36,844 nucleotides of DNA from a virus (IMGVR_UViG_3300049801_000015); one strand, 5' to 3'; positions 1 to 36,844 are shown, counted from the stretch's first letter. Made by a program: numbers and translations. The notes: generated from the sequence alone by a model not told the origin.

Positions 1-123
1 GATTCTCTTGACCTCGCACGGTAGAACGGGGAAGGCATGACACCGGAAAGCCGCAACAACGCTAGGGAGTGGCTCATCATCATGGGGCTTGCCGTATCCG
101 TTGGCCTAAGCGTGTTCGCGTCC
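1..123. repeat. Direct terminal repeat, left copy (identical to 36722..36844)
   Basis: Bases 1-123 (gattctcttgacctcgcacggtag...gcgtgttcgcgtcc) recur exactly at 36722-36844. The repeat cuts through coding sequence, which is typical of a circular-assembly overlap or terminal redundancy. Confidence 0.95.
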
Positions 124-264
124 GCAAAGGACACGCCGACGCGGACGGAGATGGAATCAAAGGACGCGGCGATCGAGGTGCGCGTTGACCGGCAGTACAC
201 CGACATGATCCGGCGTCTGGAGCGCATTGAGGCGATCCTGCTTGAGCAAGGGGGGCAGCGGTGA
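37..264 (+). CDS. Small type-II membrane protein with a coiled-coil tail (Rz-like i-spanin or holin/antiholin candidate)
   Basis: 75 aa. ATG is preceded by GGGGAAGG. One N-terminal TM helix (WLIIMGLAVSVGLSVFA) is followed by a charged helical tail (DRQYTDMIRRLERIEAILLEQ). The stop overlaps the lysozyme start (GTGA). Family not recognised. Confidence 0.6.
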   Translation: MTPESRNNAREWLIIMGLAVSVGLSVFASAKDTPTRTEMESKDAAIEVRVDRQYTDMIRRLERIEAILLEQGGQR

Positions 265-671
265 GACTGGACGTTCTACTCTCCGATCTCAAGCGCGACG
301 AAGGACTACGCCTCAAGCCGTACCTCTGCACGGCGGGGCGCACGACTATCGGCGTCGGTCGCAATCTGGACGATGTTGGGATCACCGAGGCCGAAGCGCT
401 CTACCTCTTGGAGAACGACATCGGCGCCGCGATCCGCGTGTGCCGCCGCCTGTTCCCGACGTGGGACTCCATGACGGATGCGCGGCAAGAGGCGCTCGCA
501 AACATGGCGTTCAACTTGGGGGAAGCGGGCCTATCCAAGTTCAAGCAGATGCGGGCGGCAATCGAGGCGGGCGACTGGAACACCGCCGCCCAAGCCGTCC
601 TCGCATCCAAGTACGCCTACCAAGTGGGGGACAGGGCGAAGCGGATCGCCGCCGCCCTTCTGAACGGATGA
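261..671 (+). CDS. Endolysin, T4-type lysozyme (glycoside hydrolase family 24)
   Basis: 136 aa. LKRDEGLRLKPYLCTAGRTTIGVGRN aligns almost residue for residue with the T4 lysozyme N-terminus ([23 protein letters not shown]), with the catalytic Glu and the TIG Thr retained. The downstream RQEALANMAFNLG segment is also typical of this family. Confidence 0.9.
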   Translation: MRLDVLLSDLKRDEGLRLKPYLCTAGRTTIGVGRNLDDVGITEAEALYLLENDIGAAIRVCRRLFPTWDSMTDARQEALANMAFNLGEAGLSKFKQMRAAIEAGDWNTAAQAVLASKYAYQVGDRAKRIAAALLNG

Positions 672-779: not shown

Positions 780-1466
780 ATGAATCTCATCCAGGGCGTG
801 AATAGGCTCATCCAATCGTGGATCGGCGGTGACGCCGGCAAGTGGTGGGGCGAGCAAGCCCTGGACGGGTATCCGCTGTTCCGCCCGTGCGACGTGGGGT
901 TCTCGCGCTACCACGGGACCATCGGTGCGCTCATCGCCTTCTTCTCCGGGCGCGGGTGGAGTCACCAATTCACACTCGTGAGCGGGTCGGAGATCGCGGA
1001 AGCTACAACGCCGGTTGGTCGCGTCACCAACTTGCGGGTCTACATGGACCGGAAACATTCGATGGTTGTGTACCGCTTCCCGGGTTCCGTGGTGTCGCCT
1101 CACTACAAGAGCCTGCTAGTCGGCCACGCGCGGGGCGTCGTGGGCAGGCCCTACGATTATACGAACATCGCCCGGCACCTCTTCGACTCCATCGCCAACT
1201 TCCTGTTTGGCGTGCGCCCGCTGGCCCAGTATGTGAAGGACGCGGACGGCGCGGGGAAGAACGTCTGTAGCGAATGGTGGGGCTGGGTTTGGTTCTTCGT
1301 CACCGGCTGGCCCTTCAATCCCGGCGCTCCCATCTCCAAGCTGCCCAAAGTCAAACAGGGCCAGGAGACCCCGGCCCAAAACTACGGGCGCACCATCGAG
1401 CTAGGCGCGGTCAAGGTATTCGAGATGCGGCGGGGTAAGATCGTCTACATCGCGGAGGACTTCTAA
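780..1466 (+). CDS. Permuted papain-like (NlpC/P60, YaeF/YiiX-type) amidase, second muralytic enzyme candidate
   Basis: 228 aa. The motif order is His before Cys: DVGFSRYHGTIGALIAF..GWSHQFTLV, then GRPYDYTNI and KNVCSEWWGWV. This resembles circularly permuted NlpC/P60 peptidases. It sits next to the lysozyme and holin. Confidence 0.55.
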   Translation: MNLIQGVNRLIQSWIGGDAGKWWGEQALDGYPLFRPCDVGFSRYHGTIGALIAFFSGRGWSHQFTLVSGSEIAEATTPVGRVTNLRVYMDRKHSMVVYRFPGSVVSPHYKSLLVGHARGVVGRPYDYTNIARHLFDSIANFLFGVRPLAQYVKDADGAGKNVCSEWWGWVWFFVTGWPFNPGAPISKLPKVKQGQETPAQNYGRTIELGAVKVFEMRRGKIVYIAEDF

Positions 1467-1547: not shown

Positions 1548-1835
1548 ATGGACCCCGCACTTCTACCGATTGACCCCCGATTCCTCAACGCCGCCGCCGT
1601 GCCGCTCACGGTACTGGTAGTCAAGATCCTGTCGGCACAACTCGCGCTCACCAAGGCGGGGAAGATCGCTGCCGTTGTCCTCGTCCCGGCTTTGATCGTC
1701 TGCGCCCTTGAGCTTGCGGGCTACGGGCTCGGCTGGCAGTTTGCCCCGCTCGTGTACATCGTCGCCACGCTTTCCAGCGTCGGTGCATGGAGCCTCGGTA
1801 AGAACGTCGGCGAGGCGAGCCGGGGCGGATCGTAA
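1548..1835 (+). CDS. Holin-like membrane protein (three predicted TM helices)
   Basis: 95 aa. Hydrophobic segments are AAAVPLTVLVVKILSAQLAL, IAAVVLVPALIVCALELAGYGL and FAPLVYIVATLSSVGAWSL, followed by a short charged C-terminus. It lies in the lysis cassette. Confidence 0.55.
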   Translation: MDPALLPIDPRFLNAAAVPLTVLVVKILSAQLALTKAGKIAAVVLVPALIVCALELAGYGLGWQFAPLVYIVATLSSVGAWSLGKNVGEASRGGS

Positions 1836-8229: not shown

Positions 8230-8315
8230 AGCTCTGCGCCGGTATCTTCTTCGCGATCCTGATTCCCGCCGCGCTCTGGTACGTCCGCGCGATCTTCGGG
8301 CGGTGGCCGAAATGA
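8226..8315 (+). CDS. 29-aa membrane micro-protein (below the ORF-track cutoff)
   Basis: GTGA overlap upstream and ATGA overlap downstream. Sequence VKLCAGIFFAILIPAALWYVRAIFGRWPK is one TM helix. Confidence 0.4.
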   Translation: MKLCAGIFFAILIPAALWYVRAIFGRWPK

Positions 8316-14781: not shown

Positions 14782-15113
14782 GCATCTTCACCACGCTACG
14801 AGACGCCGTTCTCGGCACCACGCCGCAGGCCGTAGTCGCCAAGCGCCTACAGCGCATCGAGTCCATCGAAGCCGACTGGCAGAAGATCGCGGACACGCTC
14901 AGGCCGCTCGCAATCCCGCCGCCCTTCGTCAACGACACGACGGGGAATCCGGCGTTCGAGGCAAAGCGATGCATCGATGGGTTGATCGTGATGCACAGCC
15001 TTGCTGTTGGGCAAGTCGATGCTGGTCACGAGGCAGCCGCTAAGGGCAGCGGGTCAAGCGCGGGGAGTTTCGAGTTCGAGGCCCGCTGCCGGATCAAGGA
15101 GGTGAGGTGGTGA
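14778..15113 (+). CDS. Hypothetical protein
   Basis: 111 aa. GTGA-coupled start. No motif recognised. Confidence 0.55.
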   Translation: MSIFTTLRDAVLGTTPQAVVAKRLQRIESIEADWQKIADTLRPLAIPPPFVNDTTGNPAFEAKRCIDGLIVMHSLAVGQVDAGHEAAAKGSGSSAGSFEFEARCRIKEVRW

Positions 15114-15655
15114 CCCGCGCCGCCCTCGCCCTCGCGCTCCGCCCCTGGCTGTGGTGGAAGGAACGACTCCGCCGGGAATACTGGCGCGGGTTCGATCACG
15201 CCGCGGCCTTCTATCGCGGCGACACGGTGGCCGGATCATACGTCCAGTATTTGGCCAGTCGCTACAGCGCGCCGCGTGAAACCGTGGTCACCGTCCAGCG
15301 ATTCGGGCCCGGCGTTAGCGCTGCGGTAGTCGAGGCGGCGGAGCACAAGCCGTGGATCAAGTGTACCAACTGCCGCGGAGATGGACACTTCTTGGCGCGA
15401 GAAGAAGATCCGTGTATCCGCAGACAGACGGTTCATTGCACGTGCGGACCCGCGTACCACGCGGGGTTCTCCGACGGGTGGGCCGCGTCAAAAGAAGACG
15501 CCGCAAGGTGGCATGGTGCGCGGGGACACAGGCTAGCGTATGCGCCCAAGACAGACGTGGCGGAACGTGAAGTCAAACAGCTGCTATTCAACGAACACCT
15601 AAAGTCCGCAGATCATCACCGATCACTCAAGAACAAGCCGGAGGTACAACCATGA
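15107..15655 (+). CDS. Hypothetical protein with a DnaJ-type CxxCxGxG motif
   Basis: 182 aa. CTNCRGDGHF is followed by CIRRQTVHCTCG. The N-terminus is hydrophobic and Trp-rich. GTG 15110 (GTGA overlap) is an alternative start. Confidence 0.55.
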   Translation: MVTRAALALALRPWLWWKERLRREYWRGFDHAAAFYRGDTVAGSYVQYLASRYSAPRETVVTVQRFGPGVSAAVVEAAEHKPWIKCTNCRGDGHFLAREEDPCIRRQTVHCTCGPAYHAGFSDGWAASKEDAARWHGARGHRLAYAPKTDVAEREVKQLLFNEHLKSADHHRSLKNKPEVQP

Positions 15656-15918
15656 AGCGCCTGCTATTCGCGCTCCTCCTCCTCGCCGGGTGTGGAAGTC
15701 CCAACCCGAGAGCCGACTGCGACCGCTGGCGTCCCGTGTTCTATCGTGAGGAACTACCGCGCAGGGTAACGTACCCCGGCATTGTCATTCCGGTGTCGCC
15801 TCGTAGCGGCATGGCATTTCCACCGTGTTGGGCAGTCAACCCCGCGAACGGTATAGGCGAATCGTGCGCCTTGTGGGTCTACGGACACGGCGACACGGTT
15901 TGGATGGTGTGCGAATGA
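15652..15918 (+). CDS. Lipoprotein (lipobox LLAGC)
   Basis: 88 aa. MKRLLFALLLLAGCGSP has a basic n-region, a hydrophobic core and an L-A-G-C lipobox. The mature part has four further Cys residues. Confidence 0.7.
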   Translation: MKRLLFALLLLAGCGSPNPRADCDRWRPVFYREELPRRVTYPGIVIPVSPRSGMAFPPCWAVNPANGIGESCALWVYGHGDTVWMVCE

Positions 15919-16346
15919 GACTCACCATCCTCGCCGCCTTGCTCCTCCTCGCCGCGCCGTGCGAGGCCCGCAGACCCGTCTACACCTTTGCTGGTCGAAT
16001 CTCGCCGTTCTGCATCAACCCGCAGACGTGCGAGGCCGACACCGTGCGCTTCACCGGCCCTGGGTGGACCGAGGGCTGGGTCATCTGGAATCCGCTGCCC
16101 GGACCCGCGCCCGAGCCGCCCGACACGTTCATGGTGTGCGGGCCGTTCGACTTCACGGCGCCCGACACGTCCTACCACGCGTACAGCTTCACGCCGATGC
16201 GATCCGGCATCTACCGATGCGCCGTGGACGTGGTAGTACCAAGGGCGGGCAGACTCTCGGACTGGTGCCCGCTGCAATGGGGCGATCCGGATACCGTGAT
16301 CCTGCCGCCTCAATCCGAAGTGTGGATGCTGAACCTGCCGAAGTGA
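15915..16346 (+). CDS. Secreted protein (cleavable signal peptide)
   Basis: 143 aa from the ATGA-coupled ATG. MRLTILAALLLLAAPCEA-RRP looks like a Sec signal with an AxA-like site. The mature part is Pro/Trp/Cys-rich. Confidence 0.6.
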   Translation: MRLTILAALLLLAAPCEARRPVYTFAGRISPFCINPQTCEADTVRFTGPGWTEGWVIWNPLPGPAPEPPDTFMVCGPFDFTAPDTSYHAYSFTPMRSGIYRCAVDVVVPRAGRLSDWCPLQWGDPDTVILPPQSEVWMLNLPK

Positions 16347-17856: not shown

Positions 17857-19537
17857 GGCGCTCACGCTCATGATCGCACTCGCCGGCGGCATCAACCCCT
17901 GGGCGCTCAACGACGCCACCTACAAGGCGCTCGTCCAGAACGAGATCGCCGCGTTCGGTCAGAACGAGGAGTGGGTAGCCGCAGAGCGGGTCCGGTGCTT
18001 TGCGCCCACCGTGACCGACCGGGAGATCGGCTTCCAGTACTGGGCCGCTCGCTACTGGAACCTCGTCAACAAGCGGGGCGAGATCGTCCTACTCCGCCCC
18101 AACGCGCTCCAGCGCTCCTACCTCGCCAACCGCTCCGCCGAGAACGTCATCCTCAAGTACCGCAAGGGCGGCGCATCGAGCGTGGTCGACGCGATGTACT
18201 ACTGGCGCTGTCGCCGCTCCCCGTACCAGCACGCCTACATCATGGCGCACGTTGCCGACTCCACCGACGAGCTCTACCAGCGCGTGCTCTTCGCTCACGA
18301 CCGTATGCCGGGCTACCTGGCCGCGCCGATCCGCCGTAGCAACAAGACCGTGCTGCACTTCGCCGACAACGACTCCTACCTCCGACTCATGACTGCCGGG
18401 GGCAAGGGCTCAGGCCGCGCCGCGGACGCCGACGCGATCCACCTCTCCGAGGCAGCGCACTACCCCGACCTGGACGGCACTCTCGCCGCGGTGGGGGAGG
18501 CCAAGCGCTCGGACGCATGGCTCGACATCGAGTCGACCCCCAACGGTTTCGACCGCTTCCGCTCCGAGTTCAAGGACGCCAAGGCCGGAAAGACCACGCG
18601 CACGGCGCAGTTCTTCCCGTGGTACTTCGACCCGGCCAACAGCACCACACTCGAGCGCGGCGAGCGCGTCACCCCAACCGCTTCCGAGCGCCCGCTGGTT
18701 GCCGCATGGCACCTCAAGCCTGAGCAGTTGAAGTGGCGGCGCGCCAAGATCGCCGACCTGAAAGACCTCTTCGCCCAAGAGCATCCCGAGGACGACGAGT
18801 CGTGCTTCCTCATCGGCGGTGTGCCCAAGTTTGACAATTCGATCCTGGGCAAGCTCGTTGCCGTGGTCGAGGCCCGCGTGCTCCCGCTCAACGAGTCGGA
18901 GCTGCGTGCCGCTGGCGACCCGTACCGCGGCTCCGGCGACAACGGGCGCTGGGTTGTCTGGCGTCGCCCGATCAAAGGGCACCGCTACGTGATCGGGGCG
19001 GACGTTGCCGAGGGCCTTCCGGGTCGTGCGAACTCCGCCGCTGGCGTTCTCGACGTAACCGGCGCCCAGGCCGAACAGGTCGCCGAGTGGTGTGGCCACG
19101 TCTCCCCGGGCGACTACGCGCACGTCCTCGCCAAGATCGGCGGCTGGTACAACGGCGCACTGGTAGCCGCCGAGCGCAACAACCACGGGCACGCGACGCT
19201 GCGCGCCCTGCGAAACGAAGTCGGCTACGCGCACATCTACAAGCACCGTCACTACGACCAGCGTGCAGGAGGCGCGATCAAGCGCCCCGGCTGGCCGACT
19301 GACGGCAAGACCCGCCCGATCATGTTCACCGACCTCCGCGACTGTCTCGACAAGGGCTGGATGATCGTCCGCTCTGCCGAGTTCCTCAAGGAGTGCATGG
19401 CGATGCAGGCGGGCGACGAGGACTTGGACAGTGACGACGACAGGCCGTCGCACTCGAAAGTCCTGCGGGATCGGATCTTCGCGTGGGGCATCGCGTGGCA
19501 GGTGCGCGGCGTAGCAACGGCAGGAGCGGTGGCATGA
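17846..19537 (+). CDS. terL: Terminase large subunit
   Basis: 563 aa. It has a Walker-A-like VILKYRKGGASS, a Walker-B/coupling element AIHLSEAAHY and ESTPNG, plus a C-terminal nuclease half with acidic motifs (VIGADVAEG, ERNNHG). The position before the portal gene fits. Confidence 0.9.
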   Translation: MGLEALTLMIALAGGINPWALNDATYKALVQNEIAAFGQNEEWVAAERVRCFAPTVTDREIGFQYWAARYWNLVNKRGEIVLLRPNALQRSYLANRSAENVILKYRKGGASSVVDAMYYWRCRRSPYQHAYIMAHVADSTDELYQRVLFAHDRMPGYLAAPIRRSNKTVLHFADNDSYLRLMTAGGKGSGRAADADAIHLSEAAHYPDLDGTLAAVGEAKRSDAWLDIESTPNGFDRFRSEFKDAKAGKTTRTAQFFPWYFDPANSTTLERGERVTPTASERPLVAAWHLKPEQLKWRRAKIADLKDLFAQEHPEDDESCFLIGGVPKFDNSILGKLVAVVEARVLPLNESELRAAGDPYRGSGDNGRWVVWRRPIKGHRYVIGADVAEGLPGRANSAAGVLDVTGAQAEQVAEWCGHVSPGDYAHVLAKIGGWYNGALVAAERNNHGHATLRALRNEVGYAHIYKHRHYDQRAGGAIKRPGWPTDGKTRPIMFTDLRDCLDKGWMIVRSAEFLKECMAMQAGDEDLDSDDDRPSHSKVLRDRIFAWGIAWQVRGVATAGAVA

Positions 19538-21753
19538 ACGAGTTGAACATCGGTAAGCTACGCATCTCCTGGGGCACCGCCAAGGCCGGATCGCTCGGGC
19601 TGACGATTGGTGACGCCGGGTCCGGCCAGGTCGTCAACCGCGACCTGTACGAGGACTACTCCAAGTCTAAGCTCTATACCGTGCTCCCCACCTTCTACGC
19701 GGGCGTGTACGCGATTGCATCAAGCATGGCGTCGGTTCCGTTCCGCGTGTACCGCAGACGCAACGGGAAGGAAGTCGAGGCACCGGACCACGAACTCCAG
19801 ACGTTGCTCGACACCTGGAACGGGTGGAAGTCCACCTACGACGAGCGCGAGGAGTCGCAGTCATTCCTCGAGCTGACCGGCTCGGCGTATCTGCTGTGTG
19901 GCGGCGCGAACGTCGACAAGGGCGGGAAGCCGCTCACGCTCACCAATCTCCGACCGTTCCGCGTGAAGGTCATCAAGGACGCGACGATGGGCGTCGCTGG
20001 CTACGTCTACGAAGTGGACAGCAAGCGGCAGACGTTCTCGGCAAACGAGATCGTGCCCATGCACTACTTCAACCCGACCGATGACCACTACGGGCTCGGT
20101 GCGGTTGACCCTGCATCGCTCGCCGCGATCTGCGACCTCTACGCAATAGCCCTCCAGAAGAACTTCTTCAAGCACGACGCGCAGTTGGGCGTTGTCCTTG
20201 AGTACCCCGAGGACACCGGGCAGGACGTACTCGACCGCGCGATCCTGGCGTTCAACGAGAAGCACCAGGGCGTGGACAAGGCGTGGCGGGCGCGCGCGGT
20301 GGCCGGGGCGAAGGTATCGAAGACCTCTGCGGACTTGGCCGACATGCTCTTCCCCGATCTGCGCCGGTTCAACCGCGAAGAGATTCTGATGGCATTGGGC
20401 GTGCCGCCCGTCATGGTGACGTTGCTGGATGGCGCGACCTACGCGAACGCGAAGGAGCAGAAGCGGCAGTTCTGGGAACTGACCATCATCCCGAAGCTCA
20501 AGAAGTGGGAAGGCGCGTTCAACCTCCACCTTGCGCCGCGATACGGCAACGACATCACGGTGCGCGCGGACCTGGCCGGAATCGAAGCTCTGCGACCTGA
20601 CCGCGTGGCGATGGTCTCAGCGATCACCCAGGCGCTGCCGCTGTTGCGTCGTGACGAGGCGCGGGCGTGGCTCAACGACGGCGAGCTTCCGTCGCTCAAG
20701 CCGCTAGGCGGGGAGCTTGGCAACGAGGTGTTGCAGTCGTTCTCGCTCATCCCGGCATCGGCCCTGAGCGTGTCGGAGCAGAAGCCAGCCGGAGCCGCCG
20801 CCAATGCTGACTTATCCATCGAGCGACTCCTGAACGCCGTCAACGAGAAGGCCGCGCACGTCCTATCCGACGAGCAGACCGAGGCGCGCAAGGTGGGCAA
20901 GTGGCGCGCGTTCGACAAGCGGTCCCGCATGATGGCCCGCGTGTTCGAGAAGACCGCGCGCTCCATGTTCAAGGAGCAGGAGTCGGCGGTACTCGACGGG
21001 CTCGAATCTGCGATCAACGCGGGCGCATCGACTCCGGTTGTCCGCGTGATGCTCGATGGGAAACTGACCTCGATCAGTTCTCCCGAGACGAAGAGCGTTG
21101 CCGAAGTCTCGTTGATCCTCGACCGGCTCCAGAACGGCAACATCGAGCGCTTCCGTGGCGTGTACGCAGAGGCGGTGAACCGTGCCGGGACCAACGCGCT
21201 TGAGGATTTGGGACTCACGGAGTTGCAGTTCTCTCTTCTCCAGCCTTCCGTCGTGTCCTATCTGGACAAAGCGGGAGCGCAACTGGTCAAGGGCGTTGAC
21301 TCCACCACGAAGGATCGCCTCGCGACGACGCTCGCGGAAGGCGTCCAGAGCGGCGAGAACATGCTCCAACTCTCGGACCGGGTGAAGACTGTATTCGACG
21401 CCTCACGCGCACGCGCGAACGCGATCGCCGTCACCGAGTCGGGCGCGGCATACAACGCCGGAACACTTGAGGCGTGGACTCAGACGGGCGGACTCGTCGA
21501 GAAGAAGGTCTGGCTCTCTTCGCGTGATGACCGCGTGCGCGACTCGCACGCCGAAGCCGAAGGGCAAGAAGTGCCGCTGTCAGGCGTCTTCCAGGTCGGC
21601 GACGCCACGCTCGCATTCCCTGGCGACGGCTCATCCCAAGACCCCGGAGAGACCGTCAACTGCCGCTGCACCATCGAGGCCGTATTGAGCGGCGAGCAGG
21701 AATCCTACCGCGCTCGCAGGAACGGAAACGGAACCCATGCACACACGAAATAA
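19534..21753 (+). CDS. Portal protein (HK97-type) fused to a C-terminal MuF/SPP1 gp7-like head-morphogenesis domain
   Basis: 739 aa from the ATGA-coupled ATG. The N-terminal two thirds have the portal pattern (YAIASSMASVPFRVYRR..., FLELTGSAYLL, MALGVPPVMV). The C-terminus AIAVTESGAAYNAG...WLSSRDDRVRDSHAEAEGQEVPLSGVF...PGETVNCRCT is the MuF-family signature (D-RVR--H...NCRC). Confidence 0.85.
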   Translation: MNELNIGKLRISWGTAKAGSLGLTIGDAGSGQVVNRDLYEDYSKSKLYTVLPTFYAGVYAIASSMASVPFRVYRRRNGKEVEAPDHELQTLLDTWNGWKSTYDEREESQSFLELTGSAYLLCGGANVDKGGKPLTLTNLRPFRVKVIKDATMGVAGYVYEVDSKRQTFSANEIVPMHYFNPTDDHYGLGAVDPASLAAICDLYAIALQKNFFKHDAQLGVVLEYPEDTGQDVLDRAILAFNEKHQGVDKAWRARAVAGAKVSKTSADLADMLFPDLRRFNREEILMALGVPPVMVTLLDGATYANAKEQKRQFWELTIIPKLKKWEGAFNLHLAPRYGNDITVRADLAGIEALRPDRVAMVSAITQALPLLRRDEARAWLNDGELPSLKPLGGELGNEVLQSFSLIPASALSVSEQKPAGAAANADLSIERLLNAVNEKAAHVLSDEQTEARKVGKWRAFDKRSRMMARVFEKTARSMFKEQESAVLDGLESAINAGASTPVVRVMLDGKLTSISSPETKSVAEVSLILDRLQNGNIERFRGVYAEAVNRAGTNALEDLGLTELQFSLLQPSVVSYLDKAGAQLVKGVDSTTKDRLATTLAEGVQSGENMLQLSDRVKTVFDASRARANAIAVTESGAAYNAGTLEAWTQTGGLVEKKVWLSSRDDRVRDSHAEAEGQEVPLSGVFQVGDATLAFPGDGSSQDPGETVNCRCTIEAVLSGEQESYRARRNGNGTHAHTK

Positions 21754-24115: not shown

Positions 24116-24595
24116 ATGCTCAAGAAGATCGCGCTCTTGGCCCTTGTCGGGATGCTGCTTGCCACTCCCGTGATGGCCGCTTCCGTTTCCGTGTCGAGTC
24201 ACGTCATCAACAACGGCTTCGGCCGGGTGCTGGTGTACGCGGACTCGTGCAAGGCATCGACGCTCGTCACGTCTCCGACGATTCAGTTGAAGAACCCGAA
24301 CTGGACGCAGTGGGCGTACACCGGCGCCGTGACTCCGTTCGTGTATCTGCCCATCACCATCACCGCATACTCGACGACCGGCTCGGACTCCATCCATGTC
24401 GGCATCGAGACCAGCGAAGACGACCTGAATTGGTACTCGTTCTACGCGCACACGCTTCAGGTGTCGGTGACTGCCCAGGGGACGCCGCGCATCCACTACC
24501 TGCTGCTTCCACAGCGGTACATGCGCGTGAAGCTCTACGCCCTGACGACCGCTTCCTACGGCGAGAAGGTCTACATCACCTACCCGACCAAGTAG
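24116..24595 (+). CDS. Signal-peptide-bearing beta-rich protein embedded in the head module
   Basis: 159 aa. MLKKIALLALVGMLLATPVMA-ASV is a canonical Sec signal (KK n-region, hydrophobic core, VMA-A site). The rest is Ser/Thr/Val/Tyr-rich. No family recognised. Confidence 0.65.
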   Translation: MLKKIALLALVGMLLATPVMAASVSVSSHVINNGFGRVLVYADSCKASTLVTSPTIQLKNPNWTQWAYTGAVTPFVYLPITITAYSTTGSDSIHVGIETSEDDLNWYSFYAHTLQVSVTAQGTPRIHYLLLPQRYMRVKLYALTTASYGEKVYITYPTK

Positions 24596-28298: not shown

Positions 28299-28443
28299 TT
28301 TCGTGACGCTGATGCACTTCGCCGCGGCGGCTGAACGGCAGAACGGAGAGGCGTTGAGCGAGATGATCGGGCGGGCATCCAAGGACGACATGGGGCCGGG
28401 CATCGCTTCCGCCGTTGCCGTTGGCGTGAGGGCTGGTAAGTGA
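28141..28443 (+). other. gpT-like frameshift extension frame of the tail chaperone (+1 relative to G)
   Basis: This frame is open from 28141 and overlaps the last 158 nt of the G gene. It ends in a TGA that overlaps the TMP start (GTGA). It has no RBS of its own. The encoded tail (..DPREIVRAGSTPEGWPDFVTLMHFAAAAERQNGEALSEMIGRAS..) looks protein-like. Confidence 0.5.
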
Positions 28444-30479
28444 GCACGCAGAAGAACCTCATTGAGATCCTCATCAACCTGATCGACAAGTCCGCGCCGG
28501 GCATGGCGCAGGCGTCGAAGCGGTTGAAGAACTTCGGTGAGGAGTCCGAGAAGCTCGGCAAGTCGATGATGAAGGCCGGTGGCATCGTGTCGGGTGCGAT
28601 GCTCGGCATGGTCAAGGTCGCCGCCAACGCTGGCGACGAGCTGCGGGATCTATCCATCCGCACGGGCGTCTCGATTGAAACCCTCTCCGGGCTCAAGTAC
28701 GCGGCGGAGCAGAGCGGGGCGGGTCTTCAGGACGTGGCAATCGGGATGCGCACGCTGGCCGGTAACCTCCAGAACGCGAGCGACAAGGGCGGTGACGCGG
28801 CCAAGGCGTTCGCCTCGATTGGCGTGGCGACTACCCAGCCGAACGGCCAGCTTCGCAAGCTCGATGACGTGTTGCTGGAAGTGGCGGACAGGCTCAAGGG
28901 CATGACCGACCGGACGCGGGCGGCGGCGCTGGCTCAGGATCTGTTTGGGCGTGGCGGGCAGGCGTTGCTCCCGATGCTGAACGAGGGCAGCGCGGGGATC
29001 AAGACCCTCACCGAGGAGGCCCGCAAGCTCGGCATCGTGTGGTCGATGCAGGATGCGAATGCCGCCGATGCGTTCAACGACTCGCTGAACCGGCTGAAGA
29101 ACTCCACCGTAGGGCTTGGCCGTGAACTCCTCACGACGCTTGGCCCAACGCTCACGGCGTTTGCCGACAAGGTGTCCACCGAAGTCCTGCCGAAGCTGCG
29201 GGCGTGGATCGACGAGAACCCCAAGCTGGCGCAGAGCGTGCTAGGCGTGTCGGTGGCCCTGCTTGGTGCGGGCGGATTGATTGTCGGTGTCGGGAAGCTG
29301 GCCCTTGGCCTGACCTCGATCATCAACCTCGCCCCCAAGGTCGTGTCGGCGTTCGCGGCGATGAAGGCCGCGGCGGTTGCGGCTGGCATCACCGGGCTCG
29401 GTAGCGCGTTCGGCGCGGCTGTGACCGTGGCTGCGCCCCTCGTGGCCGGTAGCGTTCTGGCCAATCAAAGCGTGGGCAAGGGCACTCGGAACTATGCGCT
29501 CTCGCCGGTTGGGGCAGAGGGCATCGGCCCGCTCATCATGAACGCGATCTTCGATCTGGCTCGGCGCTCTGCTGACAAGATCAAAGGCACGTCGCTCTCC
29601 GGGCTCGAATCGCTCCCGTCCTTCATGGGCATTGCCGGTCAGTACGTCACCGAGAAGGTGACGGCGGCGGGCGAGGCCGTGAAGCAGTGGGCCTCCGACC
29701 TCGAGCTCGCCGTCGGCAAGCTGGCGATCATCGGGGATCCTCAGCTCAAGGACTTCGGTCTGGAAGGGATCTTCGCGGGCGGGAAGTTCGACGAGGCGCT
29801 CGCCAAGATCGTCGAGAACGCCGACCCGTTCAAGCGCTCCACCGTCTCCGGCGCCGGTATGCAGGTCGGCCCCGAAGTCCCGTCACAGTACGAGTCCGAG
29901 TGGCGCAACCAGCAGAAGCGCGACGGGCGGGGCCAGCCCGCGGACTGGCAGACGCAGCTCACCGCCCGCATGACCGAGGCGAAGACCGGCATCCAGACGT
30001 GGCTCGACACGATTCAGGGCGCGGTGGAGAACGTAGGCAACCGGATCGGGAACGTCTTCGGCGACGCCTTCATGAGCGGGAAGCTCAGCCTCAAGGACTT
30101 CGGCTCAGCGTTCAAGGCGACAATGGCCGACGTGATCGCTCAGATCGTCGCTGCCAGCGTCAAGATGGCCGCGTTCAACCTCATCATCAAGTTGGCCGGT
30201 GGCGGCTCGCCCCTGAGCTTCTCTGACGCGCTCAAGGGCAACAGCGCGAGCGTGGACAAGAGCCTCATCAAAGATGTAGCGCGAGGCCCATCGCTGCGCC
30301 AGAACACCGACAGCACGACGGCGCTCAAGGCCGGCCTCGACAACCTGGCCAGCAAGTTCGACAACCTGGCGTCGGTGGTCGTGTCGATCCCTGGCGCTCC
30401 GGTGCTGATCGACGGGCGTGCAGCCGGTCGCACGCTGTATCCGTACATGGTCGAAGCCGCAGCGAGGGGGCAATCGTGA
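28440..30479 (+). CDS. Tail tape measure protein
   Basis: 679 aa. The N-terminal region (KLGKSMMKAGGIVSGAM..., LSIRTGVSIETLSGLKYAAEQSGAGLQDVAIGMRTLAGNL, DRTRAAALAQDLFGRGGQALLPML) is the conserved TMP domain pattern. A central Ala/Gly hydrophobic stretch follows. At about 1.5 Angstrom per residue the length implies a tail of about 100 nm. Confidence 0.9.
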   Translation: MSTQKNLIEILINLIDKSAPGMAQASKRLKNFGEESEKLGKSMMKAGGIVSGAMLGMVKVAANAGDELRDLSIRTGVSIETLSGLKYAAEQSGAGLQDVAIGMRTLAGNLQNASDKGGDAAKAFASIGVATTQPNGQLRKLDDVLLEVADRLKGMTDRTRAAALAQDLFGRGGQALLPMLNEGSAGIKTLTEEARKLGIVWSMQDANAADAFNDSLNRLKNSTVGLGRELLTTLGPTLTAFADKVSTEVLPKLRAWIDENPKLAQSVLGVSVALLGAGGLIVGVGKLALGLTSIINLAPKVVSAFAAMKAAAVAAGITGLGSAFGAAVTVAAPLVAGSVLANQSVGKGTRNYALSPVGAEGIGPLIMNAIFDLARRSADKIKGTSLSGLESLPSFMGIAGQYVTEKVTAAGEAVKQWASDLELAVGKLAIIGDPQLKDFGLEGIFAGGKFDEALAKIVENADPFKRSTVSGAGMQVGPEVPSQYESEWRNQQKRDGRGQPADWQTQLTARMTEAKTGIQTWLDTIQGAVENVGNRIGNVFGDAFMSGKLSLKDFGSAFKATMADVIAQIVAASVKMAAFNLIIKLAGGGSPLSFSDALKGNSASVDKSLIKDVARGPSLRQNTDSTTALKAGLDNLASKFDNLASVVVSIPGAPVLIDGRAAGRTLYPYMVEAAARGQS

Positions 30480-31294: not shown

Positions 31295-32943
31295 GCAACT
31301 ACGCTTCCGCCAAGGCGGCGAGCGAGGTCGCGGGCGGTCACTACCGCATCGGCGCGACGATCACGCCGCTTGACCCCGACTCGCACGCGCCTACGAACGT
31401 GACGCTGCGCGGACCCGGCTCGAATGTGCTGGCGGTGACTGACGGCGAGGCGTGGCCGTACGACTCGTCCGACGTGAAGTTCTGGTTCGAGCCGCTTGTG
31501 GAGTCGTTCGGGGACATCTCCTGCGCGGCACAGATCCACGAGGCGTTCCCGACGCTCGCCGATCCGCGCTTGGTCCTGAAGGACGTTCGCATCAACGGCA
31601 TCCTCGACAACGGGCAACTGACCTTTGCGAGCGGTAGCCCGGCAGAGTCGCCCGCGCTGACCGGCGACGAAGTGCGGCTCTCGCAGTTGCTTCAATACTA
31701 CGTCTGGCAGGGCGCGGCGGTGGAGTACAAGGTCTACTACTTCGCAGGCACGACGGACGATCCGACAACCTACAAGACCCAGACGATCTTCAAGGGGATC
31801 GTGCAGTCGGTGGACCTGCCTCAAGGCCAGATCGTGTTCAACCTGACGCAGCCCACCAAGGCCGAGGACACGCTGATACCTCGCCGCAAGGTAACAGATC
31901 CACCGGACCCCAATGCGAAGGGCCAGTTCATTCCGCTCGTGTACGGGCAATTCAAGCCGGCCGCAGCTCCGGCTGGACTGTCGTGGTCCGATGCGGCAGT
32001 TGCAGGATTCCATCCGGCCCTTGCTCCGGTGATTTCACAGGCGCGATTGACATCCTATCTGTACCTGGCCACCAACGACTGCTACGGAGTTAACACTGGC
32101 TGGCTTGGTCAAGATCCGTTCGCGTCCAACCTAGCGTCCGATGCCGCCGATGGACTTGTCATGTATTACCCCGAGGCGGATGCGTGGGGGATCATTGAGG
32201 AGGGAAGCGGCGACGGCGACAGCGCGATCTACAGTGACGAGGTGGCGCTAGGAGACTCGTTCGGCATTACCGTCAAGGTCAACCAGTACCAGACCGCCCT
32301 CGTGTATGTCCCGTGCAACGGTATCTTCACCGATGCCGACTCGATTGTTGACAACCCGGCGGCGCTTCTTGCGCGTGATCCGTTCCAGTACGCCAATGTC
32401 ACCTGCGACGACGGGGCACTGAACAAGGTCGTCCAGTTCACCATCTCGCCTATCTCGATCATGGGCGAGATCCCGCTAGAGACTGACTGCATCGGCGCAT
32501 ATCTGGTCATTGGTGCCCGTGCGGCATTTGTTGGAACTCCCGGCGTGCGCTTTGGGATCTACTCGATTCCTTCCGCCGACTGGGTCGGGTACTACGACGG
32601 CGCCGTCTATGGTGTCATGTCCGCTACCGACCTCAGAACGGCGAACCTATACACGCAGAAGTCCAAGAACAGCGTCGCCGTCCCGACAACCGCTTACGTA
32701 CAGGCCAGCGGAGCCCAACAGCCTATCATGCGGATGGACTGGCGCTATGTGAAGAACGCAAGCGGCGGTCCAGAGGGCGAGTGCGTGGTGCGCGTTCTCA
32801 TCAGTGCGGCTGGCGGGTCCGGCGACACGTTCAAGCTGATTGCGTGCGGTGCTGTGTGCAAGGTGAAGCTGAAGACTGGCGGGGCGGTCATCACCAAAAC
32901 GAGCCCGGTGGTAGACATCACTGGGCGGATCGTGAGGCGATGA
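31291..32943 (+). CDS. Minor tail / baseplate hub-like protein
   Basis: 550 aa. TTGA-coupled start. It is the second gene after the TMP. The call is positional only. Confidence 0.45.
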   Translation: MSNYASAKAASEVAGGHYRIGATITPLDPDSHAPTNVTLRGPGSNVLAVTDGEAWPYDSSDVKFWFEPLVESFGDISCAAQIHEAFPTLADPRLVLKDVRINGILDNGQLTFASGSPAESPALTGDEVRLSQLLQYYVWQGAAVEYKVYYFAGTTDDPTTYKTQTIFKGIVQSVDLPQGQIVFNLTQPTKAEDTLIPRRKVTDPPDPNAKGQFIPLVYGQFKPAAAPAGLSWSDAAVAGFHPALAPVISQARLTSYLYLATNDCYGVNTGWLGQDPFASNLASDAADGLVMYYPEADAWGIIEEGSGDGDSAIYSDEVALGDSFGITVKVNQYQTALVYVPCNGIFTDADSIVDNPAALLARDPFQYANVTCDDGALNKVVQFTISPISIMGEIPLETDCIGAYLVIGARAAFVGTPGVRFGIYSIPSADWVGYYDGAVYGVMSATDLRTANLYTQKSKNSVAVPTTAYVQASGAQQPIMRMDWRYVKNASGGPEGECVVRVLISAAGGSGDTFKLIACGAVCKVKLKTGGAVITKTSPVVDITGRIVRR

Positions 32944-34229
32944 TGCTTCCACCGGCATGGATGCTCAAGCCCAACCCCGGCCTTGGCCCCGCGTGGCTCT
33001 GGGCCTATGCGATCGGCACTTCGTTCAACGTGGCGAAGGGGCTCTTTGGCCCGCAGTCGCCCGTCATGTATCCCCGCGTCTCGCGCCCCGGCGCCTACCC
33101 CACATTTCAGCGCATCGGCACAACGTCCGCGCTCACACCGTACTTCGTCCAGAACTACATGAACGCGCTCAAGTGGTCGCTGGACAACGACGCCGGGGAC
33201 GTGAGCGGATCGCATGACATTAACATGGTCAACAACGCCCACATCGCAAGCCACTTATTGCACAAGTGGGGCACCGGCGTTGCGGCAACGGACATACTCT
33301 CCGCATCCAGCCAGTTCGGCAGCATCATCGACGCGCACAGCGCGCTTGACAGTTGGGCTCTGGACATCAATAACACCAACGAGTGGCGATCCAATCTAAT
33401 CGTCACCGACGAAACGCCGATCAAGAACGTCATCGCCAATCTGTGCAGTCAGGCGCCGATGTTCGTAGCAAAACTGCCTGAGGGTGGCATATATGCCGGG
33501 GTCTATCCCGAGGCGGCAGCAGACGCGGACCACAACTACTACAAGGACAGCGACGGCAACCGCGTCAAGATCCATCCCAACTCGATGCACCCCGGCGCGG
33601 CTGACTTAGGCAAGCCGTACGCGGTGTCAGGATTCCAGGCCGCGTTCACGCCAGACGACGAAATCTTTAACCGCTTCACGGTCAAATACAGGCGCTTTCT
33701 CCCGACCGGATCGCTTGAATCCTCGCAGATTGTCACGGAGACGGACGGCGACTGCAAGTTGTGGTACAGCGGGCTCGGCGACGAAGATCCGCCAAGCGGT
33801 GACGCGACCGATCTAGCCGGAGACATCACCGACAATCTGGCGACGGTATGCGCGTCGTCTCAGGCGCGCTACGGCGTGCGTAAGATGCCGGACATAAATC
33901 TCGACTTGGTGTACGAGCACGTTGTGGCTACCGCGTTCCTGTTCTACTTGGTCAAGCGCTACACCAACCCGCGCATCGTGTTCTCGTGTCAGGGCGGCAT
34001 CGAGTTCTCGGACTTGAGGCCCGGTCACATCATCCAGGTGTCCAACGACATGAACTACGAGGCGACCCGACCGGACTACATCAATCAGCCCGCGAAGCTG
34101 GCCGGGTGGAACACGACGGGGGCGACGGGGGTTGCCGACTACCTTGTGAACCGAGTGCGCCTGCTACCGGCGAGCGGTGCATTCGGGGTTGAGTTCAGCG
34201 CCGAGCAGATCATCTATACACCATGCTAG
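32940..34229 (+). CDS. Tail fibre / host-recognition protein candidate
   Basis: 429 aa from the ATGA-coupled ATG 32940. It is the third gene after the TMP. The call is positional only. Confidence 0.4.
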   Translation: MMLPPAWMLKPNPGLGPAWLWAYAIGTSFNVAKGLFGPQSPVMYPRVSRPGAYPTFQRIGTTSALTPYFVQNYMNALKWSLDNDAGDVSGSHDINMVNNAHIASHLLHKWGTGVAATDILSASSQFGSIIDAHSALDSWALDINNTNEWRSNLIVTDETPIKNVIANLCSQAPMFVAKLPEGGIYAGVYPEAAADADHNYYKDSDGNRVKIHPNSMHPGAADLGKPYAVSGFQAAFTPDDEIFNRFTVKYRRFLPTGSLESSQIVTETDGDCKLWYSGLGDEDPPSGDATDLAGDITDNLATVCASSQARYGVRKMPDINLDLVYEHVVATAFLFYLVKRYTNPRIVFSCQGGIEFSDLRPGHIIQVSNDMNYEATRPDYINQPAKLAGWNTTGATGVADYLVNRVRLLPASGAFGVEFSAEQIIYTPC

Positions 34230-34246
34230 AGAAAGGACACGCCACG

Positions 34247-34735
34247 ATGAGACTCAATCGGTGGGCGCTCGGTCTTGGGATCGTGGCGCTCCTGTTCGCC
34301 CTTCCGGCTTCCGCGCAGATGTGGGACGCGAAGCTCTACTCGCCGCATTCGGTGGCGGCGTATGACACGTCGCTGACCGTCACTTCTTCCACGCTCGACA
34401 CCCTCGCCCTTGGCGGGGTTGCCGCTCAGTGGACGATTTGGTCCACTAGCGCGAGCGCGACCGTGACCTACGTGGGGTGCATCCCGGCGACGGTGGCGAG
34501 CAATCCCAAGCTCCGCGCCGTTCCCGGCTACGGCCATTTCCTCGTCGGCGGCGGGAAGATCGGCACGACCACCTCCGACGGCTCGCGCTACTGGGCGCAG
34601 GCGTTCCCGTGCGCGAAGTGGGACACGCTGCTCGGCGGCGAGGTCCATTCGTGGGAAGACCCCGTGACTCACATCCTCGTGGACGGCGGCGGGAACGGCA
34701 CGGTCTACGTCCACGCACTCGTCCGCAGACGATAA
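34247..34735 (+). CDS. Secreted protein (signal peptide), function unknown
   Basis: MRLNRWALGLGIVALLFALPASA-QMW is a canonical Sec signal with an ASA site. The mature part is about 140 aa and beta-rich. An upstream in-frame ATG at 34223 is an alternative start. Confidence 0.6.
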   Translation: MRLNRWALGLGIVALLFALPASAQMWDAKLYSPHSVAAYDTSLTVTSSTLDTLALGGVAAQWTIWSTSASATVTYVGCIPATVASNPKLRAVPGYGHFLVGGGKIGTTTSDGSRYWAQAFPCAKWDTLLGGEVHSWEDPVTHILVDGGGNGTVYVHALVRRR

Positions 34736-34747
34736 GGGGGCGGCTCA

Positions 34748-35587
34748 ATGCGAATCATGAAATGGATCATGGTGCTGGCGTTGCTGTGCATCGCCTCGCC
34801 GTCGTTCGCGGGAACCGAGACATGGCCCGAGGGCACGGTGACAGTGACATTCCAACAGGGCGCGTCGGGGTTCACGGGTTGGGACGACACCTACTTGACC
34901 GAGGCGACCCCGACAACGGCGAACGGTGGCAACGCCAACGCGGTCAAGCTGTGGGTGAGCGCCTCGGTCGGCTCGCGACTTCACCCCTTGCTCAAGTGCA
35001 ACATCTCTAGCATCCCGGCGACGGCTGGAATTCTCGATGCGACGCTGACGCTGACGCACAGCGCTGCCACCACCACATCGGACGCACGGTTCCCACTATT
35101 CCTGTATCGACTCATGAAAGACTGGGGCGACAGCACGGCTACATGGGACACGACGGGCAAGGCGATAGATTGGTCGGTGAGCGGCGGGGACTCTGCGGCC
35201 TCCGATTGGTTCAACGGCGCGGGACTCGACACGATGCTATCGAGCGCACTCTATGATCGCGGCGCGAAACCCAAGAGCGCAATCTGCTACATGGGCAACG
35301 CGGCATCTGGCAATACCGTCACATTCAACGTGACCGAGGCTGTGAGGCGCATCCATGCCGGGTTGTGGACAAACTACGGATGGGAATTGCAGACCGAGTA
35401 CACGGCAAACCCGGACTTTTGGTTGTCGGCGATATACAAGTTCCACTCCTCCGAGGCCGCAACCGCCGGCAACCGCCCGCTGCTCACGGTCCACTACCTG
35501 CCCCGTGCGGCGGTGACCGACACCGTGACGGTCTCCACCGGCACAGGGAGGGTCCGCGTCGGCCCCGGACGGGTGGGACCGCAGTAG
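34748..35587 (+). CDS. Secreted DNRLRE-domain (carbohydrate-binding-like) protein
   Basis: 279 aa. The signal peptide is MRIMKWIMVLALLCIASPSFA-GTE. WDDTYLTEATPTTANGGNANAVKLWV...RLHPLLKCNISSIPATAGILDATLTL...LMKDWGDSTATW...FHSSEAATAGNRPLLTVHY follows the DNRLRE-domain pattern (D-Y, N-G, L-FD-S-IP, A-L-L, W-E--TW, F-SrE-----P-L-V). Confidence 0.65.
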   Translation: MRIMKWIMVLALLCIASPSFAGTETWPEGTVTVTFQQGASGFTGWDDTYLTEATPTTANGGNANAVKLWVSASVGSRLHPLLKCNISSIPATAGILDATLTLTHSAATTTSDARFPLFLYRLMKDWGDSTATWDTTGKAIDWSVSGGDSAASDWFNGAGLDTMLSSALYDRGAKPKSAICYMGNAASGNTVTFNVTEAVRRIHAGLWTNYGWELQTEYTANPDFWLSAIYKFHSSEAATAGNRPLLTVHYLPRAAVTDTVTVSTGTGRVRVGPGRVGPQ

Positions 35588-36745
35588 ATGCGCCTGCGTA
35601 CTCTCGCCCTTGCCTTGCTGTGCCTCGCCCTGACGGGTGGAGTGCGCACCAATCCCGCCGCCACGATCACGAGCGGGTTCAACGTCTACTACATCTCCGA
35701 CCTTCACGCGGCTACGGCGCTAGGCGGGGGCGAGAATGGACGCCTCCGCTTGTCCAAGCTCGTGACGGAGATCAATGCGGACCCGAACGCGGCGGCGCTC
35801 ATCGTCGGCGGCGACTTCACATGGGAGAGCGCCGACAGCGCCCAACACGCGCTTGAAATCTGGGCGCTGGAGCTGTTCCGCGATTCGCTCGGCGTGGACT
35901 GCCTGCCGGAAGTCGGCAACCACGAAGTCCGCGTGTTGGCCGTGACCGATTCGGCCTCGCGCTACAACGACTGGGCGGCCGGTTGGGGCGCGTTCTTCCG
36001 GCCCTACGCCTCGCAGGCCGATCAAGGCAGCACATGGTACACGCACCGGGTCCGCCTGGGTGGCGTGCCGACAAACGTGCTGTTCATGGCGCTCAACAAC
36101 ATCGCCGCCGATTCCGTTGACGGATACCGCGCCTATTGGGAGAACAACGGCGTCGGCGGGGTGAACTCCGACGACTACCCCGGCATCCTTGACGCGGCAT
36201 CGGTACAGCGCACCGACTTGGCCGAGCTTCTCGCGCGGGTTGGCTCTACCGAATGGGCGATCATCGGGCAGCACCGGGCGTTGGAAACCGGGGTGGACAC
36301 GACCGGGGCAATGGAATCGAGCGCACGGACCCCGATCACCGCCGCGCTCTCTGCCGGCGGCTACGTCGCGCAGATCGACAGCGCCTTGACCGGCAAATGG
36401 ATCGCGCTCCAGTCGGACATGCACGAAACGCTGGCCCTCACCCGCGCGCAGCACTACATCTTCGCAAGCTCCGCTGCGCTTCGGGCAAAGTACCAGCCGA
36501 GCATCGTGGCGTTTGGGGATTCGGCGAAGTGGTTCGCCTACTACGATACCTTGCAGACTTCCACCGGAGACGGCGAGGCGTTGCTTGGCGATACGTGCGC
36601 CGACTGCTACACGCTGGCGTCGCCCATCGTCACCTTCTGCACCAAGATCACGTTTCTTTCAGCGTCAACGGCGCGGGCGTACTTGCTCGCCATCCGCAAC
36701 GGGTCCGCAACGGCGACCCTCGATTCTCTTGACCTCGCACGGTAG
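35588..36745 (+). CDS. Exported calcineurin-like metallophosphoesterase
   Basis: 385 aa. The hydrophobic N-terminus MRLRTLALALLCLALTGG is followed by YYISDLH (DxH), VGGDFTW (GDxx), EVGNHEV (GNHE), IIGQHRAL and QSDMHET. The 3' end lies in the terminal repeat. Confidence 0.65.
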   Translation: MRLRTLALALLCLALTGGVRTNPAATITSGFNVYYISDLHAATALGGGENGRLRLSKLVTEINADPNAAALIVGGDFTWESADSAQHALEIWALELFRDSLGVDCLPEVGNHEVRVLAVTDSASRYNDWAAGWGAFFRPYASQADQGSTWYTHRVRLGGVPTNVLFMALNNIAADSVDGYRAYWENNGVGGVNSDDYPGILDAASVQRTDLAELLARVGSTEWAIIGQHRALETGVDTTGAMESSARTPITAALSAGGYVAQIDSALTGKWIALQSDMHETLALTRAQHYIFASSAALRAKYQPSIVAFGDSAKWFAYYDTLQTSTGDGEALLGDTCADCYTLASPIVTFCTKITFLSASTARAYLLAIRNGSATATLDSLDLAR

Positions 36746-36844
36746 AACGGGGAAGGCATGACACCGGAAAGCCGCAACAACGCTAGGGAGTGGCTCATCA
36801 TCATGGGGCTTGCCGTATCCGTTGGCCTAAGCGTGTTCGCGTCC
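36722..36844. repeat. Direct terminal repeat, right copy (identical to 1..123)
   Basis: Exact 123-nt identity with the first 123 bases of the window. Confidence 0.95.
36758..36844 (+). CDS. Truncated duplicate of the 5' end of CDS 37..264 (terminal-repeat artefact)
   Basis: Identical to 37-123 and runs off the window end. Confidence 0.5.
   Translation, partial: MTPESRNNAREWLIIMGLAVSVGLSVFAS

Follow-up and report, generated by a model that had tools for sequence, protein, structure and literature searches.

A predicted exported lectin-esterase cassette in a mosaic slot between the tail and lysis genes of a tailed phage

Why would a tailed phage, whose virion is assembled in the cytoplasm, encode a run of apparently exported proteins at the end of its late genes? 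The question is raised by IMGVR_UViG_3300049801_000015, a stretch of 36,844 nucleotides (nt), hereafter the window, which is the complete genome (~36.7 kb) of a small tailed phage from waste/leachate-type metagenomes. Between the last recognisable virion gene and the lysis genes lie three consecutive open reading frames, ORF1, ORF2, and ORF3 (Table 1), each of which is predicted to carry a Sec signal peptide. Comparison with relatives shows that the locus is a mosaic slot in which ORF1 is constant and the cargo is swapped between related phages. The interpretation given most weight, which stands an even chance of being correct, is that the trio forms a Sec-exported, late-expressed, glycan-directed esterase module, the likeliest purpose of which would be to remove or modify a glycan that serves as receptor or barrier on the dying cell and on the debris it leaves.

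Export is suggested by the N-termini, which were scored across the whole proteome with a home-made signal-peptide heuristic that combines n-region charge, 10-mer hydrophobicity, an uncharged h-region, and the −3/−1 rule. Six of 51 predicted genes pass, as compared to 1.5% of non-coding ORFs of the same composition and an average of 0.31 passes (maximum 2) in shuffled proteomes. The N-termini of ORF1–3 are the most hydrophobic of the genome (2.99–3.26) and have an n-region charge of +2. Their h-regions span 14–17 uncharged residues and are thus too short for a transmembrane (TM) helix or a membrane anchor. The predicted cleavage sites, marked here by a hyphen, are ASA-Q in ORF1, SFA-G in ORF2, and LTG-G or TGG-V in ORF3. 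No lipobox of the form [LVI][ASTVI][GAS]C is present in any of the three (ALLC in ORF3 is non-canonical), and the only lipobox ORF of the genome lies elsewhere, at 15652–15918.

Conservation among relatives points in the same direction. ORF1 homologues carry two types of leader sequence, both ending in (A/V)SA-Q, and near-invariance starts exactly at Q24; this combination of a drifting leader and a conserved mature part is the evolutionary signature of a cleaved leader. The signal-peptide architecture is also retained on all five cargo alleles despite their unrelated sequences. Cysteine is about twice as frequent in the predicted exported proteins as in the structural proteins, and the cysteine counts of ORF1, ORF2, and ORF3 are even (2, 2, and 4). 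The original prediction, made from the window alone, had proposed Sec-type leaders on all three ORFs and six signal-peptide or lipoprotein genes in the genome. The heuristic passes all three leaders, that of ORF3 with a weaker site, and recovers exactly the six genes named. As a separate observation, the predicted mature N-terminus of ORF1 is a glutamine in every allele (ASA-Q or VSA-Q), as in the “Q-rule” described for signal peptidase I substrates of Bacteroidota (PMC10367356). The rule was not used as a pointer to the host, since it fits ORF1 alone and the other predicted exported proteins do not follow it.

The domain content of ORF2 and ORF3 suggests what would be exported. ORF2 scores 71.5 bits against the NF033679 DNRLRE-domain model (cutoff 34), and its alleles in two related contigs, L007 and L008, which are ~30% identical to it, also pass (46.9 and 55 bits). 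The match of ORF2 to the Pfam family Disaggr_repeat (PF06848) reaches 28.8 bits and stays under the gathering cutoff of 33.9. The DNRLRE domain shares ~30% sequence identity with the founding CBM96 alginate-binding module (PMC9971899), and ORF2 is predicted to be a CBM96-like, carbohydrate-binding lectin. ORF3 scores 29.3 bits against PF00149 (Metallophos, cutoff 21.5), with residues 32–186 aligned to positions 2–132 of the 191-position profile. Metallophosphoesterase motifs I–III (D38-L-H40, G75-D76, and G110-N111-H112-E113) are present at the typical spacing of ~25–35 residues and are invariant in three homologues, and the dN/dS ratio (nonsynonymous to synonymous substitution rate) of ORF3 is 0.14–0.16. 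Both assignments had been anticipated. The DNRLRE domain is recovered far above its cutoff; the metallophosphoesterase assignment holds for the family and motifs I–III, and the distal histidine motifs that had been listed with them are tentative and atypical.

Beyond these families, the proteins are isolated. ORF2 has no detectable relatives in isolated phages (INPHARED), nor does ORF3, and sequence and profile searches of the PDB with either protein returned nothing meaningful. Word-based searches of 5.8 billion proteins with ORF1, ORF2, and ORF3 returned only members of their own clade. PADLOC, which covers anti-phage defence, gave no matches; the NCBIfam model DS9_1 scored only 12 bits (cutoff 420), with E = 0.061. 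The genome encodes another metallophosphoesterase-like protein at 2137–3102, apparently cytoplasmic (GDPH..GDDRNNW..GGNHD..GGHTH), which matches phrog_7339 (“DNA repair exonuclease”) with 124.8 bits and is not recognised by Pfam. An hhalign comparison of this protein with ORF3 found no relationship.

The strongest clue to function is the behavior of the locus in related phages. In the sister phage L007, which is syntenic with the window, the tail genes are 59–93% identical, and ORF1 and ORF3 are 86% and 79% identical, while ORF2 is only 31% identical. At the DNA level, homology to the relatives extends over ORF1 and ORF3 but is limited to the first ~5 and last ~25 codons in ORF2. ORF2 is ~30% identical between phages in which the neighbouring genes are 79–93% identical, a pattern expected of a host-specificity determinant. 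L008 has an unrelated tail module (23–34% identity, no DNA similarity) and a lysozyme that is 57% identical, yet its cassette retains ORF1 (90%) and ORF3 (87%), together with an ORF2 of the L007 type. Between the window and L008, the synonymous divergence (dS) is 0.66 for ORF1 and ORF3 and 1.28 for the adjacent lysozyme, with dN/dS of 0.12–0.17. These values indicate purifying selection on the cassette as well as its transfer from one backbone to another.

In a second configuration, found in L009, L010, and L011 (the last from a landfill leachate well), ORF1 is kept at full length (86–98% identical), and a single gene of 722–735 amino acids (aa) stands in place of the whole interval between the ORF1 stop codon and the last ~25 nt of ORF3. 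The encoded protein carries a signal peptide, a LamG lectin-like domain (PF13385, 37.7–39 bits), and a GDSL/SGNH esterase domain (PF13472, 38.7 bits, cutoff 32.9). ORF3 is absent from L009 and L011 apart from a mini-ORF of 10 codons, MKLDSLDLAR, located 3′ of the LamG-GDSL gene (4388–4420 in L009 and 12659–12696 in L011). This mini-ORF consists of a start codon at the position of the ORF3 start relative to the cargo stop, joined to the last eight codons of ORF3, and is thus a precise deletion scar of ORF3. The scar occurs exactly where an esterase has become fused to the lectin. The locus follows a “lectin plus esterase” logic in two configurations, either a DNRLRE protein with a separate phosphoesterase or a LamG-GDSL fusion without ORF3.

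The GDSL domain is homologous to that of the baseplate/receptor-binding protein (RBP) of Lactococcus phage 98203 (KX160217; 25% identity, E = 1e-7). The gene of this homologue occupies the same genomic position, between Tal and the holin-lysin genes, suggesting that the slot is normally used for proteins acting on the host surface. The constant orphan ORF1, the swappable tagged cargo, and the transfer of the cassette between unrelated backbones were all absent from the original prediction.

The cargo proteins are further united by a short C-terminal tag with the consensus RVR(V/I)GPGRVGP(Q/H) (Table 1). In all five variable cargo proteins, which represent two unrelated folds, the C-terminus reads G-T-x-R-(V/R)-R-(V/I)-G-P-G-R-V-G-P-(Q/H)-stop. 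Between the DNRLRE and LamG versions, six of 11 tag codons differ synonymously and the peptide is unchanged, which means that the amino-acid sequence is constrained rather than the DNA. Neither the window nor the related loci contain the tag at any other place, and in IMG/VR it is confined to the two contigs of this clade. A search of 596 Gb of reference genomes for the tag pattern gave 26 matches, which look like off-frame chance occurrences, none of them C-terminal. ORF3 lacks the tag.

ORF1 is the constant member of the cassette and accompanies the tag in every case; it is probably the reader of the tag. Its mature part is 93–100% conserved in L007, L008, L009, and L011, and its dN/dS of 0.12–0.17 indicates purifying selection. 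No match to ORF1 was found in Pfam, NCBIfam, PHROG, or PADLOC. An exhaustive scan of 1.84 billion representatives with HMMER recovered its own cluster and, apart from it, only a spurious match to a translated tandem repeat, and a metagenome scan returned the L011 contig again and nothing else.

The three ORFs are real genes of the + strand, which carries all credible genes of the genome in a screen of GC content at third codon positions (GC3); their GC3 of 0.80–0.84 is of the coding type, and each is preceded by a Shine–Dalgarno sequence. The gaps separating the 428-aa tail-tip gene, ORF1, ORF2, ORF3, and the TM-protein gene are 17, 12, 0, and 12 nt, respectively, and ORF2 and ORF3 are stop-start coupled (TAGATG). 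A read-through fusion of ORF2 and ORF3, which share a frame, was considered and rejected: ORF2 ends with TAG in the window and with TAA in relatives, and ORF3 is equipped with a separate Shine–Dalgarno sequence and signal peptide. No promoter or terminator was found inside 34200–36844, the GC content of the cassette (0.64–0.65) equals that of the genome, and searches of the window revealed no integrase or repressor family. The trio thus behaves as late lytic genes rather than as autonomous morons or conversion genes.

The position next to the lysis genes becomes apparent when the genome is closed across an exact terminal repeat (Table 1). The phage was assembled in at least 10 samples as contigs of 36–39.5 kb with differing breakpoints and without host flanks, and the permuted assemblies read ORF3, 75-aa TM protein, GH24 lysozyme, weak C92-like protein, and 95-aa multi-TM protein in this order. 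The proposal that the trio lies directly upstream of the TM protein and lysozyme after closure is in agreement with both the 123-nt overlap and these assemblies. The lysozyme, amidase, and holin labels that had been given to the neighbours fare unequally: the lysozyme label is solid (PF00959, 56.3 bits), whereas “amidase” and “holin” are tentative, the former resting on sub-cutoff C92 similarity and the latter on TM segments only.

Taken together, a mechanism can be hypothesized. The trio would be transcribed with the tail and lysis genes, in tight or translational coupling, and a cleavable Sec signal peptide would move each product out of the cytoplasm. There, the ORF2 lectin would recognise a host polysaccharide, its body being swapped between phages as the glycan varies, and ORF3, as a binuclear-metal phosphoesterase, would hydrolyze a phosphoester, either a substituent or a linkage, within that glycan or close to it. 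In the sister phages from which ORF3 has been deleted, one LamG-lectin and GDSL-esterase polypeptide may do the same job. ORF1 would most likely read the C-terminal tag on the lectin-bearing cargo, serving as a dock, chaperone, or localiser. The outcome would be a receptor-destroying or escape function, such that progeny escape and are not lost through re-adsorption. A host surface glycan is favored as the target because of the hypervariability of ORF2, the RBP/baseplate slot, the GDSL homology to the Lactococcus phage RBP, and the signal peptides on all products.

Several observations weigh against this interpretation. Export of the trio is predicted by a home-made heuristic, and the cleavage site of ORF3 is weaker than the others and non-canonical. 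In a diderm bacterium, Sec alone reaches only the periplasm. The candidate distal metal ligands of ORF3 (H229, D277/H279) are invariant but unaligned, as the Pfam match ends at residue 186, and ORF3 matches no NCBIfam subfamily, PDB relative, or characterised subfamily. AlphaFold models of ORF1 (pLDDT 34) and ORF3 (AF2, pLDDT 33), built from only 2–3 homologues, are unusable, and the interaction between ORF1 and the tag is purely our inference. The clade is tiny and comprises five cassette versions that come from a few related metagenomes. Finally, the present data cannot separate receptor destruction from an aid to lysis or exit.

The latter is the main rival, and it is rather unlikely. As lysis accessories, the exported esterases would weaken the outer layer (outer membrane or lipopolysaccharide, capsule, S-layer, or matrix) from the periplasmic side after holin and endolysin, as functional analogues of mycobacteriophage LysB or of spanins/disruptin. 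In favor of this role, the cassette lies immediately 5′ of the TM protein and lysozyme, with which it is co-transcribed, and it adjoins lysis genes in all relatives, including L008 with its different backbone; no canonical spanin pair was found in the genome, and a homologue of the signal-peptide protein encoded at 15915 follows the lysozyme in L008. However, ORF1–3 show no homology to known lysis families (endolysin, holin, spanin, LysB), and ORF3 is dispensable in L009 and L011. Moreover, strain-specific recognition of glycans accounts better for the hypervariable ORF2 and the lectin domains than a generic envelope target does, and the difference in dS (0.66 versus 1.28) gives the cassette a history distinct from that of the lysozyme. 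Similar considerations apply to the original prediction of an exported envelope- or matrix-degrading exit module. Its exported-looking products, its place in the late genes beside the lysis genes, and the fit of the ORF2, ORF3, and LamG/GDSL domains to envelope or surface polymers stand, but nothing points to polymer degradation: both enzyme types are esterases, which more typically strip substituents than depolymerise a matrix, and relatives dispense with ORF3.

It is less probable still that the proteins are virion-associated host-recognition proteins, either because their N-termini are not export signals or because they undergo maturation beyond the cytoplasm and are attached to the tail by the tag once the cell lyses. 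The genomic position is that of siphovirus RBP/baseplate genes, the GDSL homologue belongs to such a protein in a Lactococcus phage, an obvious fibre gene is otherwise lacking downstream of the 428-aa tip protein, and a conserved, anchor-like tag on a swappable body resembles tail-fibre mosaicism. Yet each of the five unrelated N-termini shows the complete tripartite build of a signal peptide, including a short h-region, and resembles no known tail anchor domain; ORF1–3 have no PHROG tail-family match and no N-terminal virion-attachment domain; and the virions of tailed phages are assembled in the cytoplasm. Equally doubtful is the idea that the peptide is a phage-private docking tag: the exported cargo would fold, with disulfides, outside the cytoplasm and be captured by ORF1, or at lysis by the tail tip of the released virion.

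Expression from a prophage, by which morons or genes for lysogenic conversion or superinfection exclusion would change the host surface, is highly unlikely. In its favor, the cargo is polymorphic among close relatives, in presence/absence as well as in alleles, and is replaced between similar phages; the cassette has been transferred from one backbone to another, and signal-peptide cargo has precedent in phages. In contrast, an own promoter or terminator and an atypical composition are lacking, all genes lie on one strand, and neither an integrase or repressor nor any sign of a temperate phage or prophage context was found: the permuted circular assemblies, at least 10 in number, are without host flanks, and a portal search revealed no prophage relative in 185k reference genomes. 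The alternative of lysogenic-conversion-type morons in the original prediction is thus disfavored. The most remote explanation is that the N-termini are chance hydrophobic stretches of ordinary cytoplasmic proteins. The weak cleavage site of ORF3 would suit it, but three consecutive passes contrast with the 1.5% background per ORF and the 0.31 passes per shuffled genome, the architecture is kept across diverged alleles, and conservation of mature ORF1 begins exactly at the predicted site.

How, then, does a glycan-directed exported module compare with known systems? Virions are well known to carry glycan esterases, and among the receptor-processing ones are the SGNH O-antigen deacetylase tailspikes. 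The baseplate/RBP protein of Lactococcus phage 98203 (BppU_N plus GDSL) occupies the same slot from Tal to holin/lysin, and its esterase is homologous to the alternative cargo; virion esterases of this type and the cassette both pair carbohydrate recognition with an esterase. However, known virion esterases have an N-terminal virion-anchor domain and no signal peptide, whereas the cassette has predicted Sec signal peptides, a private C-terminal tag, and an orphan partner that is likewise predicted to be exported.

Lom and Bor of lambda, Llp of T5, and Cor are signal-peptide moron or exclusion proteins of phages. Signal-peptide cargo has also been described in Porphyromonas gingivalis phages and prophages (PMC10367356). 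Like the cassette products, as predicted, these are Sec-dependent envelope proteins encoded within or behind the tail genes or beside lysis genes and variable between related phages. They differ in being lipoproteins or small proteins of the outer membrane, most of which have a promoter to themselves or are produced in lysogens, while the cassette encodes lectin and enzyme proteins, has no transcription signals of its own, and resides in a genome in which no lysogeny genes were found.

Exported PF00149 members include periplasmic or secreted UshA/CpdB-type enzymes and purple acid phosphatases. ORF3 resembles exported calcineurin-like members in passing the Pfam gathering score, in its canonical motifs I–III, and in its signal peptide, but its distal histidine motifs are atypical and its C-terminal ~90 aa have no assigned fold. 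The DNRLRE/CBM96 family occurs in secreted or surface carbohydrate-active proteins (PMC9971899, PMC2447325). Whereas CBM96 usually forms part of larger lyases or S-layer proteins, ORF2 is stand-alone, phage-encoded, and equipped with a predicted signal peptide and a C-terminal tag.

Secreted and signal-arrest-release (SAR) endolysins and other envelope-directed lysis accessories have been reviewed (PMC6116005). Along with LysB and spanins, they share with the cassette a location in or beside the lysis genes; some are pre-positioned outside the cytoplasm, and the LysB esterase cuts an outer-layer linkage. They have no sequence relationship to the cassette, LysB is not Sec-exported, and the cassette cargo is lectin-guided and hypervariable. 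As far as could be found, an exported glycan-esterase system with a constant orphan partner, cartridge-like cargo exchange, and a private C-terminal tag has not been described in the literature.

What has been known are phage glycan-processing enzymes on tails and occasional exported morons. If correct, the interpretation as an exported glycan-directed module would define a distinct strategy by which virulent phages manage the host surface late in infection (receptor destruction, escape, or envelope weakening), together with a new short peptide tag and its partner. It would also provide new exported phosphoesterases and esterases against bacterial surface polymers, with possible use as anti-biofilm or typing reagents. 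Should the docking role of the tag hold, the system would be plug-and-play, with interchangeable glycan-processing modules maturing in the periplasm instead of being built into the tail in the cytoplasm. The locus also warns annotators that a gene situated between Tal and the lysis cassette need not encode a virion component.

Table 1. Coordinates of the cassette, its flanking genes, and the terminal repeat in the window.
Feature	Position	Strand	Description
ORF1	34247..34735	+	162 aa; predicted Sec signal peptide 1–23; mature part 139 aa; 2 invariant Cys
ORF2	34748..35587	+	279 aa; predicted signal peptide 1–21; DNRLRE/CBM96-type domain 46–248 (nt 34883–35491), then linker and C-terminal tag
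C-terminal tag RVRVGPGRVGPQ	35549..35584	+	last 12 residues of ORF2; also ends the LamG-GDSL cargo of L009 and L011
ORF3	35588..36745	+	385 aa; predicted signal peptide ~1–18; metallophosphoesterase core; C-terminal region of ~90 aa without recognised fold; no tag
Terminal overlap	1..123 = 36722–36844		exact 123-nt repeat closing the genome; includes the final 24 nt of ORF3 and the 5′ part of the TM-protein gene
428-aa tail-tip protein	32943..34229	+	immediately 5′ of ORF1; last recognisable virion gene; assigned by synteny after the tape measure
75-aa protein	37..264	+	one N-terminal TM segment, charged helical tail; 12 nt 3′ of ORF3 across the junction; overlaps the lysozyme start
GH24 phage lysozyme (endolysin)	261..671	+	single-domain; PF00959, 56.3 bits; phrog_7 endolysin
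228-aa protein	780..1466	+	weak similarity to YaeF/YiiX C92 permuted papain-like amidase; PF05708, 21.3 bits (below cutoff 27); NF008552, 19.8 bits
95-aa protein	1548..1835	+	holin candidate by topology alone; 2–3 TM segments; no family match

On the lysis side of the cassette, the 75-aa TM protein has no family match. The small TM protein 5′ of the lysozyme is non-homologous between phages, with 75 aa and an N-terminal TM segment here and 65 aa and a C-terminal TM segment in the relatives (11252–11449 in L007, 11144–11341 in L008, and 12706–12903 in L011); it is another swapped element, at the ORF3/lysozyme junction. No canonical spanin pair was found in the genome. A candidate pair at 15107/15652 was rejected, since the 182-aa ORF (15107–15655) preceding the sole lipobox ORF has no TM segment.

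All of the nearest isolate relatives of the GH24 lysozyme (41–49% identity) belong to phages that infect Gram-negative Proteobacteria, a hint that the host may be a diderm. The portal and RecE are at most 40% identical to proteins of isolated phages with mixed hosts, too distant for host inference.

On the tail side, family searches identify TerS, TerL, a portal-MuF fusion, the prohead protease, the major capsid protein, a head-tail adaptor, the tail tube, and the tape measure (28440–30479). These are accompanied by three tail-tip proteins without annotation (272, 550, and 428 aa), the last of which is 77% identical in L007 and 34% in L008. The 550-aa and 428-aa proteins correspond to one fused 902-aa protein in L008 (5838–8546). 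The portal (19483–21753) has 756 aa and is fused to a MuF/head-morphogenesis domain.

The remaining three signal-peptide or lipoprotein genes lie outside the cassette. At 15652–15918, just 5′ of terS, a Pro/Cys-rich lipoprotein with the lipobox LLAG-C is encoded, followed at 15915–16346 by a Pro-rich signal-peptide protein (20 Pro, 6 Cys), the homologue of which stands right after the lysozyme in L008 (11778–12209). The third, a 159-aa protein at 24116–24595 between the major capsid protein and the head-tail adaptor, has a strong signal-peptide-like N-terminus (MLKKIALLALVGMLLATPVMA-AS) and no family match; a predicted signal-peptide protein amid the head module is odd. Elsewhere, a Mom-family DNA-modification protein is encoded at 8303–8923 (PF25680, 53.5 bits), and a tandem duplication of ~475 bp (13056–13437 and 13531–13960, blocks 92–100% identical) has produced two small paralogous genes, both starting with MTAKPWG.

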